Positions 1 through 58,544 of a stretch of DNA of 64,000 nucleotides are shown one piece after another. Source of the stretch: Escherichia coli (GTDB lineage Bacteria; Pseudomonadota; Gammaproteobacteria; Enterobacterales; Enterobacteriaceae); the NCBI RefSeq assembly GCF_016026235.1, contig NZ_CP065613.1, one strand, 5' to 3'. The notes below the pieces were generated by a model. The model worked only from the letters and a program-made list of their open reading frames with translations. It was not told the origin of the DNA and made no database searches. Position 1 is the stretch's first letter. Every line of letters begins with the position of its first letter. The translations under genes and the position numbers were made by a program.

Positions 1-1376
1 GCGTACAGCACTTCGCTAAAACCATGCGGGCCAGGGTTGAGCATGGCGCTACGTCCGGCGTCGGTCATCATTGCCAGCGCCGCGCCCATCAGCACCAGCG
101 TCGGGGTGACCAGAATCGCCAGTGCAGTCAGTTTCATCTCACGTACGTCGATTTTTTTACCCAGATATTCCGGTGTACGACCAATCATCAGCCCGGCAAT
201 AAACACCGCCAGCAGGACAAACAGCATCATGCCGTAAAGACCAGAACCGACACCGCCGAATACCACTTCACCAATTTGCATCAGCCACATCGGCACCATG
301 CCACCGAGAGCGGTAAACGAATCATGCATCGCAATCACCGCGCCACAGGACGCCGCCGTAGTCACGACCGCAAACAGGCTACTGACCAGCACGCCGAAAC
401 GGCTCTCTTTACCTTCCATATTGATGCTGCTGTCTGCGCCGAGCGCCAGCAGATGAGGATTACCCTGAACTTCTGCCCACATCACCACGCCTACGCAGAT
501 GACAAAAATCACTGACATCGCCCACAGCAACATGCGCCCCTGGCGGCGATCGCCCGTCACTTCACCAAAGGCAAAGCACAGCGCTGTTGGGATCAAGAAG
601 ATCGCCAGCATCTGCACGAAGTTGGTCAGTGCGGTTGGGTTTTCAAACGGATGCGACGAGTTGGCATTAAAGAAGCCACCGCCGTTAGTACCGAGCATCT
701 TGATCGCTTCCTGAGAAGCTACTGGCCCCATGGGTAACAGCTGTTGCGCTCCTTCAACGGTATTCACTGCCTGATAGGGCAGAAAGTTTTGCAGCGCACC
801 TTGTTGAATAAAAAACAGTGCGATCAACAACGCCACAGGGACTAGCACCCATAACGTGATGCGTAGCAGATCGACCCAGGCATTCCCGAGTGTGCTCATG
901 CTCTGGCGGGTAAATGCACGGATGAAGGCAAAAATCACCGCAATCCCGCTGGCGGCAGAAAGAAAGTTTTGCACCGTTAAGCCCGCCATCTGGCTGAAAT
1001 AGCTCAACGTGGTTTCACCGCTATAAGATTGCCAGTTGGTATTGGTGACAAAGCTGACGGCGGTATTCAGCGCCAGATCCCACGACAGCCCCGGCAACTG
1101 CTGTGGATTAAGCGGCAGATAGTGCTGACCGAGCAACATAAAAAACAGCACCGCCAGCCCCAGCATGTTCAGGCCGAGAATGGCACAAAGATATTGCTTC
1201 CAGTTCATCTCATGGTCAGAGACGCCAGGTAAACGAAAGAGTATACGTTCAACGCCCGCTGTACCTGGAAGAGGAATGTCATTAATCAGCCGCGCCAGCC
1301 CGCTGCCTAAAGGACGCGCCAGCACCATTAACACCAGTAAAAACGTGGCGATCAGTAAGAACCCTTGCGCAGCCAT
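1..1376 (-). CDS. kdpA: Potassium-transporting ATPase subunit A (KdpA), N-terminal ~458 codons; gene continues past the window start
   Basis: Minus-strand ATG at 1374-1376 reads MAAQGF...; open frame runs to position 1; start overlaps kdpF stop (ATGA). Absent from the ORF track because its stop is outside the window. Confidence 0.85.
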
Positions 1377-1465
1377 CAGAACGCCTCCGCATTGATCAGG
1401 GCATAAACCAGATAACCCAGTAATAAAAACACCAGCAATACGCCGGTTATCACGCCTGCACTCAC
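1376..1465 (-). CDS. kdpF: KdpF, 29-aa membrane subunit of the Kdp complex
   Basis: C-terminal 29 residues of track ORF 1376..1579 are [29 protein letters not shown] (GTG start at 1463-1465); sits immediately upstream of kdpA. Confidence 0.85.
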
Positions 1466-34991: not shown

Positions 34992-35326
34992 ATGTATAAG
35001 TCTTGGAAATGGGCATCAAAAAGAGATAAATTGTTCTCGATCAAATTAGCTGAAAGGCGGTAATTTAGCTATAAATTGATCACCGTCGAAAAATGCAAAT
35101 TTGCTTCAACAAAAACCTGTTTATTGTAAGGATTTTGCGGCGTAATATATACGTGGGATCAATTTGAGTTTTTATTAACATGTTTGCAACCTTTCTTTAC
35201 GCCGTTTTTGTGTGCATTCACATGGTATGATGAAAGTGTTCAAACAAATTTCTATTGGGGCATGCGTGTGACCCTTTCTAACGGGGTTCACTCTCGGAGT
35301 CTTCATGCGATGAGCAAGGAGTCATG

Positions 35327-36895
35327 ATGTTAGATATAGTCGAACTGTCGCGCTTACAGTTTGCCTTGACCGCGATGTACCACTTCCTTTTTGTGCCACT
35401 GACGCTCGGTATGGCGTTCCTGCTGGCCATTATGGAAACGGTCTACGTCCTCTCCGGCAAACAGATTTATAAAGATATGACCAAGTTCTGGGGCAAGTTG
35501 TTTGGTATCAACTTCGCTCTGGGTGTGGCTACCGGTCTGACCATGGAGTTCCAGTTCGGGACTAACTGGTCTTACTATTCCCACTATGTAGGGGATATCT
35601 TCGGTGCGCCGCTGGCAATCGAAGGTCTGATGGCCTTCTTCCTCGAATCCACCTTTGTAGGTCTGTTCTTCTTCGGTTGGGATCGTCTGGGTAAAGTTCA
35701 GCATATGTGTGTCACCTGGCTGGTGGCGCTCGGTTCAAACCTGTCCGCACTGTGGATTCTGGTTGCGAACGGCTGGATGCAAAACCCAATCGCGTCCGAT
35801 TTCAACTTTGAAACTATGCGTATGGAGATGGTGAGCTTCTCCGAGCTGGTGCTTAACCCGGTTGCTCAGGTGAAATTCGTTCACACTGTAGCGTCTGGTT
35901 ATGTGACTGGCGCGATGTTCATCCTCGGTATCAGCGCATGGTATATGCTGAAAGGTCGTGACTTCGCCTTCGCTAAACGCTCCTTTGCTATCGCTGCCAG
36001 CTTCGGTATGGCTGCTGTTCTGTCTGTTATTGTTCTGGGTGATGAATCCGGCTACGAAATGGGCGACGTGCAGAAAACCAAACTGGCTGCTATTGAAGCC
36101 GAGTGGGAAACGCAACCTGCGCCTGCTGCCTTTACTCTGTTCGGCATTCCTGATCAGGAAGAGGAGACGAACAAATTTGCGATTCAGATCCCTTACGCAC
36201 TGGGCATCATTGCAACGCGTTCCGTGGATACCCCGGTTATCGGCCTGAAAGAGCTGATGGTGCAGCATGAAGAACGCATTCGTAACGGGATGAAGGCGTA
36301 CTCTCTGCTCGAACAACTGCGTTCTGGTTCTACCGACCAGGCGGTTCGTGACCAGTTCAATAGCATGAAGAAAGACCTCGGTTACGGTCTGCTGCTGAAA
36401 CGCTATACGCCAAACGTGGCTGATGCGACTGAAGCGCAGATTCAACAGGCAACCAAAGACTCCATCCCGCGTGTAGCGCCGCTGTACTTTGCGTTCCGTA
36501 TCATGGTGGCGTGTGGCTTCCTGCTTCTGGCAATCATCGCGCTCTCTTTCTGGAGTGTCATCCGCAACCGCATTGGCGAGAAAAAATGGCTTCTGCGCGC
36601 CGCGCTGTACGGTATTCCGCTGCCGTGGATTGCTGTAGAAGCGGGCTGGTTCGTGGCTGAATATGGCCGCCAACCGTGGGCTATCGGTGAAGTGCTGCCG
36701 ACAGCTGTGGCGAACTCGTCACTGACCGCAGGCGATCTCATCTTCTCAATGGTGCTGATTTGCGGCCTGTATACTCTGTTCCTGGTGGCAGAATTGTTCT
36801 TAATGTTCAAGTTTGCACGCCTCGGCCCAAGCAGCCTGAAAACCGGTCGCTATCACTTTGAGCAGTCTTCCACGACTACTCAGCCGGCACGCTAA
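35327..36895 (+). CDS. cydA: Cytochrome bd-I ubiquinol oxidase subunit I
   Basis: Track ORF 35324..36895; start at [38 protein letters not shown]..., 522 aa. Confidence 0.96.
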
Positions 36896-36910: not shown

Positions 36911-38050
36911 ATGATCGATTATGAAGTATTGCGTTTTATCTGGTGGCTGCTGGTTGGCGTTCTGCTGATTGGTTTTGCAGTCACTGACGGTTTCGACATG
37001 GGGGTGGGCATGCTCACCCGTTTCCTCGGTCGTAACGACACCGAGCGTCGAATTATGATTAACTCCATTGCACCACACTGGGACGGTAACCAGGTTTGGC
37101 TGATCACCGCGGGCGGCGCACTCTTTGCTGCCTGGCCGATGGTCTATGCCGCTGCGTTCTCCGGCTTCTATGTGGCGATGATCCTCGTGCTGGCGTCTTT
37201 GTTCTTCCGTCCGGTCGGTTTTGACTACCGCTCCAAGATTGAAGAAACCCGCTGGCGTAACATGTGGGACTGGGGCATCTTCATTGGTAGCTTCGTTCCG
37301 CCGCTGGTAATTGGTGTAGCGTTCGGTAACCTGTTGCAGGGCGTACCGTTCAACGTTGATGAATATCTGCGTCTGTACTACACCGGTAACTTCTTCCAGT
37401 TGCTCAACCCGTTCGGCCTGCTGGCAGGCGTGGTGAGCGTAGGGATGATCATTACTCAGGGCGCAACCTATCTGCAAATGCGTACCGTGGGCGAACTGCA
37501 CCTGCGTACCCGTGCAACGGCTCAGGTGGCTGCGCTGGTGACACTGGTCTGTTTCGCACTGGCTGGCGTATGGGTGATGTACGGTATCGATGGTTATGTC
37601 GTGAAATCGACAATGGACCATTACGCAGCCTCTAACCCACTGAATAAAGAAGTGGTTCGTGAAGCTGGCGCATGGCTGGTTAACTTCAACAACACGCCAA
37701 TTCTGTGGGCTATTCCGGCACTGGGTGTGGTTCTGCCGCTGCTGACCATCCTGACTGCACGTATGGATAAAGCCGCGTGGGCGTTTGTGTTCTCCTCCCT
37801 GACGCTGGCCTGCATCATCCTGACAGCCGGTATCGCAATGTTCCCGTTTGTGATGCCGTCCAGCACCATGATGAACGCAAGTCTGACAATGTGGGATGCA
37901 ACTTCCAGCCAGCTGACGCTTAACGTCATGACCTGGGTTGCGGTGGTTCTGGTACCGATCATTCTGCTCTACACCGCCTGGTGTTACTGGAAAATGTTCG
38001 GTCGTATCACCAAAGAAGATATTGAACGTAACACCCACTCTCTGTACTAA
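36911..38050 (+). CDS. cydB: Cytochrome bd-I ubiquinol oxidase subunit II
   Basis: 379-aa ORF MIDYEVLRFIWWLLVGVLLIGFAVTDGFDMGVGML... Confidence 0.96.
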   Translation: MIDYEVLRFIWWLLVGVLLIGFAVTDGFDMGVGMLTRFLGRNDTERRIMINSIAPHWDGNQVWLITAGGALFAAWPMVYAAAFSGFYVAMILVLASLFFRPVGFDYRSKIEETRWRNMWDWGIFIGSFVPPLVIGVAFGNLLQGVPFNVDEYLRLYYTGNFFQLLNPFGLLAGVVSVGMIITQGATYLQMRTVGELHLRTRATAQVAALVTLVCFALAGVWVMYGIDGYVVKSTMDHYAASNPLNKEVVREAGAWLVNFNNTPILWAIPALGVVLPLLTILTARMDKAAWAFVFSSLTLACIILTAGIAMFPFVMPSSTMMNASLTMWDATSSQLTLNVMTWVAVVLVPIILLYTAWCYWKMFGRITKEDIERNTHSLY

Positions 38051-38064
38051 GTAAGGAGCTAAAA

Positions 38065-38178
38065 ATGTGGTATTTCGCATGGATTCTGGGAACGCTTCTT
38101 GCCTGTTCGTTTGGGGTAATCACCGCGCTGGCGCTTGAACACGTCGAATCAGGCAAAGCCGGTCAAGAAGACATCTGA
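38065..38178 (+). CDS. cydX: Cytochrome bd-I accessory subunit CydX, 37 aa
   Basis: Read by eye: gtaaggagctaaaa-ATG then MWYFAWILGTLLACSFGVITALALEHVESGKAGQEDI; SD 8 nt upstream; stop overlaps ybgE start (TGATG). Below the ORF-track length cut-off. Confidence 0.85.
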   Translation: MWYFAWILGTLLACSFGVITALALEHVESGKAGQEDI

Positions 38179-38471
38179 TGAGTAAGATTATCGCGACCTT
38201 GTATGCGGTAATGGACAAGCGCCCCCTGCGGGCGCTTTCCTTCGTGATGGCGCTTCTGTTAGCAGGATGTATGTTTTGGGACCCATCTCGTTTTGCCGCG
38301 AAGACCAGTGAACTGGAAATCTGGCATGGTTTATTGCTGATGTGGGCCGTCTGTGCTGGTGTGATTCACGGCGTGGGCTTTCGTCCGCAGAAGGTTCTTT
38401 GGCAAGGGATTTTTTGCCCATTGCTTGCCGATATTGTTCTCATTGTCGGGCTGATTTTCTTCTTCTTTTAA
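38178..38471 (+). CDS. ybgE: Small membrane protein YbgE (cyd operon protein, function unknown)
   Basis: 97-aa ORF MSKIIATLYAVMDKRPLRALSFVMALLLAGCMFWDPSRF...; hydrophobic. Confidence 0.85.
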   Translation: MSKIIATLYAVMDKRPLRALSFVMALLLAGCMFWDPSRFAAKTSELEIWHGLLLMWAVCAGVIHGVGFRPQKVLWQGIFCPLLADIVLIVGLIFFFF

Positions 38472-38489: not shown

Positions 38490-38523
38490 AAATTATGGGC
38501 CGCTCCAGGCCCATAAATTTTTA
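38490..38523 (+). terminator. Rho-independent terminator of the cydABX-ybgE operon
   Basis: Hairpin atgggccgctccaggcccat followed by aaattttta. Confidence 0.7.
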
Positions 38524-38620
38524 CGCTCCCTTAACTTGCCCTCATTCCCAAACCTCAATCGCGCGCGTATAGTAGCAGCGTTTAAAAGCTCTAACTTTTG
38601 TTGCATTACCGGGATGTAAA

Positions 38621-42911: not shown

Positions 42912-43457
<546 letters not shown>

Positions 43458-43466
43458 GAGAATTGC

Positions 43467-44258
43467 ATGAGCAGTAACTTCAGACATCAACTATTGAGTC
43501 TGTCGTTACTGGTTGGTATAGCGGCCCCCTGGGCCGCTTTTGCTCAGGCACCAATCAGTAGTGTCGGCTCAGGCTCGGTCGAAGACCGCGTCACTCAACT
43601 TGAGCGTATTTCTAATGCTCACAGCCAGCTTTTAACCCAACTCCAGCAACAACTTTCTGATAATCAATCCGATATTGATTCCCTGCGTGGTCAGATTCAG
43701 GAAAATCAGTATCAACTGAATCAGGTCGTGGAGCGGCAAAAGCAGATCCTGTTGCAGATCGACAGCCTCAGCAGCGGTGGTGCAGCGGCGCAATCAACCA
43801 GCAGCGATCAAAGCGGTGCGGCGGCATCAACGACGCCGACAGCTGATGCTGGTACTGCGAATGCTGGCGCGCCGGTGAAAAGCGGTGATGCAAACACGGA
43901 TTACAATGCAGCTATTGCGCTGGTGCAGGATAAATCCCGCCAGGATGACGCAATGGTGGCATTTCAGAATTTCATCAAAAATTACCCTGATTCAACTTAC
44001 CTGCCAAACGCCAATTATTGGCTGGGTCAGTTAAACTACAACAAGGGTAAAAAAGATGATGCGGCGTACTATTTTGCTTCGGTAGTGAAAAACTATCCGA
44101 AGTCACCAAAGGCTGCTGATGCGATGTTTAAAGTCGGCGTCATCATGCAGGACAAAGGTGACACCGCAAAAGCGAAAGCCGTATACCAGCAGGTTATCAG
44201 TAAATACCCTGGTACTGATGGCGCTAAACAGGCACAAAAACGTCTGAACGCGATGTAA
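43467..44258 (+). CDS. cpoB: Cell division coordinator CpoB (YbgF), TPR-repeat periplasmic protein
   Basis: 263-aa ORF MSSNFRHQLLSLSLLVGIAAPWAAFAQAPISS... with coiled-coil and TPR region. Confidence 0.93.
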   Translation: MSSNFRHQLLSLSLLVGIAAPWAAFAQAPISSVGSGSVEDRVTQLERISNAHSQLLTQLQQQLSDNQSDIDSLRGQIQENQYQLNQVVERQKQILLQIDSLSSGGAAAQSTSSDQSGAAASTTPTADAGTANAGAPVKSGDANTDYNAAIALVQDKSRQDDAMVAFQNFIKNYPDSTYLPNANYWLGQLNYNKGKKDDAAYYFASVVKNYPKSPKAADAMFKVGVIMQDKGDTAKAKAVYQQVISKYPGTDGAKQAQKRLNAM

Positions 44259-44422: not shown

Positions 44423-44498
44423 GGGTCGTTAGCTCAGTTGGTAGAGCAGTTGACTTTTAATCAATTGGTCGCAGGTTCGAATCCTGCACGACCCACCA
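44423..44498 (+). tRNA. lysT: tRNA-Lys (anticodon UUU)
   Basis: gggtcgttagctcagttggtagagcagttgacttttaatcaattggtcgcaggttcgaatcctgcacgacccacca; cloverleaf with TTT anticodon and encoded CCA. Confidence 0.95.
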
Positions 44499-44526
44499 AT
44501 CGCTAAGGTGGAAGCGGTAGTAAAAC

Positions 44527-44598
44527 GTGAAGGATAACGTTGCATCAGCAACGGCCCGAAGGGCGAGACGAAGTCGAGTCATCCTGCACGACCCACCA
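44527..44598 (+). repeat. Spacer repeat copy 1 ending in a pseudo-tRNA-Lys 3' end
   Basis: gtgaaggataacgttgcatcagcaacggcccgaagggcgagacgaagtcgagtcATCCTGCACGACCCACCA; last 18 nt identical to the 3' end of tRNA-Lys. Confidence 0.8.
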
Positions 44599-44633
44599 CT
44601 AACATAGTTAGTTGTAGTATCCAGCGTAGTATT

Positions 44634-44709
44634 GGGTGATTAGCTCAGCTGGGAGAGCACCTCCCTTACAAGGAGGGGGTCGGCGGTTCGATCCCGTCAT
44701 CACCCACCA
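44634..44709 (+). tRNA. valT: tRNA-Val (anticodon UAC)
   Basis: gggtgattagctcagctgggagagcacctcccttacaaggagggggtcggcggttcgatcccgtcatcacccacca. Confidence 0.95.
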
Positions 44710-44711
44710 CC

Positions 44712-44787
44712 GGGTCGTTAGCTCAGTTGGTAGAGCAGTTGACTTTTAATCAATTGGTCGCAGGTTCGAATCCTGCACGACCCACCA
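44712..44787 (+). tRNA. lysW: tRNA-Lys (anticodon UUU)
   Basis: Identical to the lysT sequence; starts 2 nt after valT. Confidence 0.95.
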
Positions 44788-44815
44788 GTTTTAGCATCGA
44801 AGACAGATGTTAAGC

Positions 44816-44885
44816 GTGTAGGATAACGTTGCGTCAGCAACGGCCCGTAGGGCGAGCGAAGCGAGTCATCCTGCACGACCCACCA
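44816..44885 (+). repeat. Spacer repeat copy 2 ending in a pseudo-tRNA-Lys 3' end
   Basis: Near-identical to copy 1, with a few substitutions. Confidence 0.8.
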
Positions 44886-44936
44886 CTAATTACGGTGGGT
44901 TCGGTGGAAGTAGTTTGTAGTATCCAGCGCAGTATC

Positions 44937-45012
44937 GGGTGATTAGCTCAGCTGGGAGAGCACCTCCCTTACAAGGAGGGGGTCGGCGGTTCGATCCCGT
45001 CATCACCCACCA
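44937..45012 (+). tRNA. valZ: tRNA-Val (anticodon UAC)
   Basis: Identical to the valT sequence. Confidence 0.95.
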
Positions 45013-45015
45013 CTC

Positions 45016-45091
45016 GGGTCGTTAGCTCAGTTGGTAGAGCAGTTGACTTTTAATCAATTGGTCGCAGGTTCGAATCCTGCACGACCCACCA
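45016..45091 (+). tRNA. lysY: tRNA-Lys (anticodon UUU)
   Basis: Identical to the lysT sequence; 3 nt after valZ. Confidence 0.95.
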
Positions 45092-45119
45092 ATTTTAACA
45101 TCAAACTCAGATGTTAAGC

Positions 45120-45189
45120 GTGAAGGATAACGTTGCGCCAGCAACGGCCCGAAGGGCGAGCGAAGCGAGTCATCCTGCACGACCCACCA
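45120..45189 (+). repeat. Spacer repeat copy 3 ending in a pseudo-tRNA-Lys 3' end
   Basis: Near-identical to copies 1 and 2. Confidence 0.8.
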
Positions 45190-45237
45190 ATCTTAAAGAT
45201 TGGCCCCGAGTAAAAATCTTTCAGGTAACACCCGTAT

Positions 45238-45313
45238 GGGTCGTTAGCTCAGTTGGTAGAGCAGTTGACTTTTAATCAATTGGTCGCAGGTTCGAATCCT
45301 GCACGACCCACCA
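45238..45313 (+). tRNA. lysZ: tRNA-Lys (anticodon UUU)
   Basis: Identical to the lysT sequence. Confidence 0.95.
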
Positions 45314-45346
45314 TCCTGAATGATTAAAGCAGCATAATCCCGCAAG

Positions 45347-45422
45347 GGGTCGTTAGCTCAGTTGGTAGAGCAGTTGACTTTTAATCAATTGGTCGCAGGT
45401 TCGAATCCTGCACGACCCACCA
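45347..45422 (+). tRNA. lysQ: tRNA-Lys (anticodon UUU)
   Basis: Identical to the lysT sequence; last gene of the array. Confidence 0.95.

Positions 45423-58376: not shown

Positions 58377-58544
<168 letters not shown>

Follow-up and report, generated by a model that had tools for sequence, protein, structure and literature searches.

The 37-codon cydX gene between cydB and ybgE in an Escherichia coli cyd operon and its putative translational coupling to ybgE

The 64,000-nt stretch of Escherichia coli DNA analyzed here (the window) carries on its + strand the genes cydA, cydB, cydX and ybgE, the third of which fits into the short interval between cydB and ybgE, and a terminator-like hairpin downstream of them (Table 1). 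Direct reading of the sequence places the ATG of cydX at 38065-38067 and its TGA at 38176-38178, and the peptide encoded by positions 38065-38178 (+) is MWYFAWILGTLLACSFGVITALALEHVESGKAGQEDI. The TAA of cydB (38048-38050) is separated from the cydX ATG by a 14-nt spacer containing the Shine-Dalgarno (SD) sequence TAAGGAG, for which the computed duplex with the 3' end of 16S rRNA amounts to -8.4 kcal/mol. An earlier note on this DNA had described here a 37-codon open reading frame (ORF) with a strong SD, lying exactly between cydB and ybgE, and this description holds base for base: the peptide is exactly as quoted, cydB ends at 38050 and ybgE begins at 38178, the ATG and the SD are both present, and no frame-disrupting difference occurs within 38065-38178. 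The same note had called the gene invisible to the ORF track, which is correct and reflects a length cut-off only, cydX having been missed because its 37 aa fall short of the 60-aa default of the ORF lister.

Table 1. Features of the cyd locus and of other parts of the window, numbered from the first nucleotide of the window.
Feature	Position	Strand	Description	Basis
kdpF	1376-1465	-	29 aa; GTG start	confirmed from RefSeq genome
ybgV	17749-17781	-	10 aa; overlaps ybgU	DNA K-12-identical; annotated in K-12
ybgU	17765-17872	-	35 aa; between gltA and sdhC	DNA K-12-identical; annotated in K-12
cydA	35327-36895	+	cytochrome bd-I subunit I; 522 aa from K-12 start	PF01654 E=1.9e-171; K-12-identical protein
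cydB	36911-38050	+	cytochrome bd-I subunit II; 379 aa	PF02322 E=1.7e-110; K-12-identical protein
SD of cydX	38052-38058	+	TAAGGAG; 6 nt before ATG	sequence; duplex with 16S 3' end
cydX (formerly ybgT)	38065-38178	+	37-aa single-helix membrane subunit of cytochrome bd-I	ORF; family models; K-12 identity
TGATG junction	38176-38180	+	cydX TGA and ybgE ATG (38178-38180) share base 38178	
ybgE	38178-38471	+	97 aa, "cyd operon protein YbgE"; membrane protein with three predicted TM helices	PF09600, NF007881, TIGR02112
terminator-like hairpin	38493-38516	+	GC-rich hairpin, then ATTTTTA; bidirectional; 22 nt after ybgE stop	consensus scan only
CpoB/ybgF thermometer element	43358-43496	+		Rfam, 142 bits
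tRNA cluster	44423-45419	+	seven tRNA genes and three RtT repeats	Rfam
acrZ	58395-58544	+	49 aa	protein K-12-identical; annotated in K-12
integrase	62289-63416	-	375 aa; prophage or integrative-element edge	
excisionase-like ORF	63301-63525	-	74 aa; prophage or integrative-element edge	
RalR-like ORF	63630-63824	-	64 aa; prophage or integrative-element edge	
RalA sRNA	63634-63812	+	antisense to RalR-like ORF	Rfam RF02694, 216 bits

Two adjacent ATG codons are available for cydA, the ORF lister starting at 35324 (MML...) and the K-12 annotation at 35327. The SD sequence CAAGGAGU pairs at -8.0 kcal/mol for the start at 35327 versus -2.7 kcal/mol for that at 35324, and we place the start at 35327 because the SD spacing fits this codon and not the other. 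At the opposite end of the operon, the product of ybgE displays both of the properties by which YbgE proteins are recognized, being encoded after cydX in the cyd operon and scoring above the curated cut-offs of its families (PF09600, E=9e-34 and 116 bits against 25.2; TIGR02112, 141.8 bits against 89.55; NF007881, 185.2 bits against 116). The hairpin beyond ybgE is likely to mark, as far as a consensus scan can suggest, the end of the cydABX-ybgE transcript, and its position is consistent with a four-gene transcript of that composition. A sigma-70-like site can be discerned at 38545-38573 (+), ahead of ybgC, and hairpin and site taken together suggest a transcriptional boundary between the cyd and the ybgC-tol-pal operons.

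The identification of the small ORF as cydX, put forward in the earlier note, is upheld by family models, by DNA identity to K-12, by the PDB and by RefSeq annotation. The peptide matches PF08173 (YbgT_YccB; E=1.8e-14, 53.9 bits, cut-off 26.2) and the NCBIfam equivalog TIGR02106, "cytochrome bd-I oxidase subunit CydX" (70.7 bits, cut-off 31.6), and is identical in 37 of 37 residues to chain X of PDB entries 6RKO (6rko_X) and 6RX4 and of seven others. By identity to this cryo-EM chain, and by that only, the peptide would belong physically to the CydAB complex. The 114 nt of cydX are 100% identical to b4515 of E. coli K-12 MG1655, a single mismatch separates the 600 nt around the gene from K-12, and the CydA, CydB and YbgE proteins are all identical to their K-12 counterparts. 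RefSeq annotates cydB, cydX and ybgE under the matching stretch, cydX is likewise annotated in MG1655, and this stretch of 701 nt is found in 5425 of 5426 complete E. coli genomes. The cydX genes of the window and of K-12 hence share DNA, protein, place after cydB, SD and TGATG overlap with ybgE, and do not differ in the gene itself, whereas the host strain does differ elsewhere in the window.

The locus also agrees with what is expected of a cydX gene. The criterion of Allen et al. (2014; PMC4325964) is an ORF of about 30-50 codons immediately after cydB in the cydAB operon, and at 38065-38178 such a short ORF lies directly 3' of cydB and possesses its own ribosome-binding site. Its product combines a single hydrophobic helix (maximum 19-residue Kyte-Doolittle mean of 2.05) with the conserved N-terminal motif (M-W-Y-F-x-W...G) and the variable polar tail of CydX proteins.

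For comparison we used the genomic contexts of eleven YbgE representatives, which are 26-61% identical to the YbgE of the window. Most CydX homologues keep the N-terminal MWYFAWILG motif, which the most divergent possess in altered form, and their polar tails vary; the shorter MWYF.W motif is common to 10 of the 11 homologues from these loci, the divergent peptide of locus L011 starting with MLYVVW. When the first 26 codons of cydX are compared with homologues from other taxa, most differences lie at third codon positions, for example 12 of 14 nucleotide differences in one comparison and 15 of 23 in another, synonymous codon changes outnumbering non-synonymous ones by 9 to 3 and by 13 to 4. 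Against the closer homologues the differences are thus mostly synonymous or at third positions, a pattern that points to purifying selection on cydX. An SD of comparable strength (-5.7 to -12.0 kcal/mol) precedes cydX in each of the 10 further loci for which it was scored. Within the window, the six-frame scan with a 20-aa minimum and scoring of ribosome-binding sites that the earlier note had proposed recovers cydX, the SD of which ranks 15th in strength among the 1764 start/stop combinations of 20-59 aa and joint third among the 13 intergenic ORFs whose SD is at least as strong as -5 kcal/mol.

Short length alone, together with the sheer number of start/stop combinations in this size range (1764 in the window), might lead one to regard the ORF as a chance open frame in the cydB-ybgE spacer that is never translated. 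Such a reading is refuted, and its probability practically negligible, given that PF08173 and TIGR02106 pass their curated cut-offs, that the peptide is resolved in cryo-EM structures, that third codon positions take a disproportionate share of the substitutions relative to the closer homologues, that the strong SD is conserved in other taxa, and that both Ribo-seq (PMC8921622) and genetics (PMC6005532) have been published for the gene. The ORF could also be taken for AppX/CbdX, the paralogous small subunit of cytochrome bd-II, on the basis of a weak similarity to PDB 7ose_C (E=0.015) and of a score of 21.7 bits with the CbdX model NF011333. This score, however, falls well short of the CbdX cut-off of 57, whereas the CydX equivalog is matched at 70.7 bits against 31.6; moreover, the gene comes after cydA and cydB, the products of which are identical to CydA and CydB of K-12, and the peptide equals chain X of the bd-I structures. 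A bd-II identity is accordingly refuted too and must be deemed exceedingly improbable. We regard it as virtually certain that the ORF at 38065-38178 is cydX, encoding the small third subunit of cytochrome bd-I, and are very highly confident that the best explanation as a whole is that of cydX as the third gene of a cydABX-ybgE operon. Since it does not differ from its K-12 counterpart, nor its product from a chain in solved structures, cydX is here an ordinary gene, known and annotated before, and there is nothing new in its identity.

The function of CydX is well documented. It is a bd-I subunit required for activity, and its deletion leads to slow growth, sensitivity towards reductants and diminished oxidase activity (PMC6005532); it binds transmembrane (TM) helices 1, 4, 5, 6 and 7 of CydA and plays a crucial part in assembly, stability and activity (PMC8951039). 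In E. coli Ribo-seq data the gene bears the label "translated" (PMC8921622), and CydX homologues have been catalogued in about 300 proteobacterial genomes, where many were unannotated at the time (PMC4325964). Among related subunits, AppX/CbdX of bd-II (PDB 7OSE, 7OY2) is a paralogous single helix with the N-terminal MWY..W motif that binds AppC as CydX binds CydA (PMC8951039), but it is encoded in the app operon, and the peptide reported here scores below the CbdX cut-off. CydS of the Geobacillus thermodenitrificans bd oxidase and CydH/CydY (ynhF) of E. coli bd-I are likewise single-TM accessory subunits (PMC8951039). The former is slightly tilted on CydA relative to CydX, whereas the latter sits on the side of CydA opposite to CydX, blocks an oxygen access site and has its gene outside the operon.

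The suspicion voiced in the earlier note that other microproteins below 60 aa could be missed in the window proved justified, since kdpF, ybgU, ybgV and acrZ are also annotated there, bringing to five the annotated proteins of that size in 64 kb. A very strong SD (GGAGGUG, -10.6 kcal/mol) precedes kdpF, and the stop codon of this gene shares a TGATG with the start of kdpA, the same arrangement as that of cydX and ybgE. KdpF and AcrZ, respectively a subunit of the Kdp K+-ATPase and an accessory microprotein of AcrB, resemble CydX in being single-helix membrane microproteins (29 and 49 aa) that join large membrane complexes, but they are unrelated to it in sequence and have other partners, the Kdp ATPase and the AcrB efflux pump. 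All three membrane microproteins, and nothing else, are recovered by a simple filter that asks for an intergenic ATG or GTG ORF no shorter than 20 codons, an SD at least as strong as -5 kcal/mol and a 19-residue stretch that is hydrophobic: 13 intergenic ATG/GTG ORFs pass the SD filter, and a hydrophobic 19-mer of at least 2.05 occurs in kdpF, cydX and acrZ, the last being the most hydrophobic small ORF of the window. The ybgU gene would be missed by a scan based on ribosome-binding sites because its SD is weak (-4.3 kcal/mol). An ORF cut-off of 60 aa therefore hides functionally important membrane microproteins, and the window may serve as a calibration point for genome scanning.

The junction between cydX and ybgE exhibits two of the features by which coupled gene pairs are recognized. 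The upstream stop overlaps the downstream start in TGATG, one base (38178) being shared just as the earlier note had stated, and the downstream gene itself has no effective SD: ahead of ybgE, SD-like pairing reaches -2.4 kcal/mol at best, versus -8.4 for cydX, -8.0 for cydA and -6.9 for cydB. A PF08173-type or CydX-like small ORF lies directly upstream of ybgE in each of the 11 other loci, and hence in 12 of 12 with the window included, and cydB precedes cydX in all loci whose contig reaches that far. Across the 12 junctions the two genes overlap by 1-20 nt in nine and are separated by a gap of 1-11 nt in three; for locus L015 the in-frame ATG at 2549 was used, the start chosen by the gene caller giving a 47-nt overlap. 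Of the 11 loci scored, eight give ybgE a weak SD (no stronger than -3.8 kcal/mol). The adjacency of cydX and ybgE persists where the downstream ybgC-tolQR genes have been replaced by unrelated genes, so that YbgE goes with the oxidase operon rather than with tol-pal.

In light of the overlap, the weak SD of ybgE and the preservation of the junction, it seems reasonably probable that translation of ybgE is coupled to that of cydX. Translation of cydX starts from its own strong SD within the 14-nt spacer after cydB, and its product, as established elsewhere, forms one TM helix lying against CydA within the cytochrome bd-I quinol oxidase; ribosomes terminating at the cydX TGA may then re-initiate at the overlapping ybgE ATG, for which there is no effective SD. 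Were this so, synthesis of YbgE would be tied to that of CydX and probably lower. The coupling claimed in the earlier note is in this manner strengthened, as a probable mechanism, by the overlap, by the weak ybgE SD and by the tight junction in 11 other loci; a literature search returned no published test of the dependence of ybgE on cydX translation, most matches referring to an unrelated Bacillus aminotransferase of the same name.

It is also possible, though in our view rather doubtful, that ybgE is translated independently of cydX, the overlap being a product of operon compaction and ribosomes loading de novo at AAGAAG, an A-rich and weakly SD-like sequence 7 nt upstream of the ybgE ATG. 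Short overlaps are generally common in compact operons, which counts against a functional need for coupling. In three of the other loci ybgE has a moderate to strong SD (-6.4, -6.9 and -9.3 kcal/mol), and the 11-nt spacer found in one locus, which favors independent translation as well, indicates that overlap is not obligatory. Folding of the junction RNA (38120-38230) revealed no unusual structure (z = -1.06); it thus yields no evidence for a regulatory RNA structure at the junction, and the lack of a predicted inhibitory structure there favors independent translation. In addition, separating cydX from ybgE by a kanamycin cassette had no phenotypic effect, either on growth or with beta-mercaptoethanol (PMC6005532), a result congruent with independent translation and from which it follows that, under the conditions of that study, bd-I activity does not require coupled synthesis of YbgE. 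On the other hand, the duplex of only -2.4 kcal/mol in the window speaks against de novo loading, as do the SDs no stronger than -3.8 kcal/mol in eight of 11 loci and the placement of ybgE, which overlaps the cydX stop or lies within 11 nt of it in all 12 loci.

The role of YbgE itself invites speculation. It is a conserved, predicted three-TM protein encoded directly after cydX in all loci examined; its AlphaFold model (pLDDT 91.6; helices at residues 15-34, 48-66 and 81-96) comprises a short N-terminal helix followed by three TM helices, and a Foldseek search of this model against the PDB returned no structural relative (best E=5.5). The solved bd-I complexes contain CydA, CydB, CydX and CydH/CydY, and YbgE is absent from them (PMC8951039). 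We would tentatively, and with little confidence, entertain that YbgE is a biogenesis factor specific to bd-I or else a fifth component, bound loosely and in sub-stoichiometric amounts, and that re-initiation after CydX sets its synthesis. The constant adjacency of cydX and ybgE, seen also where the ybgC-tol genes have been replaced, is compatible with this. Coupling to cydX might deliver YbgE next to nascent CydX and CydA, where it could, for instance, help to insert CydX or to load haem, and as a component of bd-I it could have escaped both the solved structures and standard phenotype assays. Predicted proteins of 130-135 aa that carry both PF08173 and PF09600 are found in public raw assemblies (P0002-P0005, P0012 and P0018), and such CydX-YbgE fusions were considered as Rosetta-stone evidence for a physical link. 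They were rejected as such and look like assembly indels, since the frameshift point within the cydX tail differs each time and most of them are singletons. One of the set, P0018, is an in-frame cydX-ybgE fusion.

Several differences from K-12 can be observed elsewhere in the window. At its left end (1-2600), kdpA, kdpF, ybfA and ybgA are contiguous, without the rhsC/ybfC/ISAs1 island present in K-12 and in strain 2013C-4974, and the complete E. coli genome that matches best over the first 6 kb does so at only 99.0% identity, so that the source strain is not closely represented among complete genomes. Rfam models identify a CpoB/ybgF thermometer element and a tRNA cluster, the latter arranged differently from the lysT-valT-lysW-valZ-lysYZQ cluster of K-12. 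Finally, the edge of a prophage or integrative element extends from 62289 to 64000, after ybhA, where K-12 has pgl, and includes the integrase, the excisionase-like ORF and the RalR-like ORF with its antisense RalA sRNA, the last two forming a type I toxin-antitoxin pair that is known in the rac prophage.
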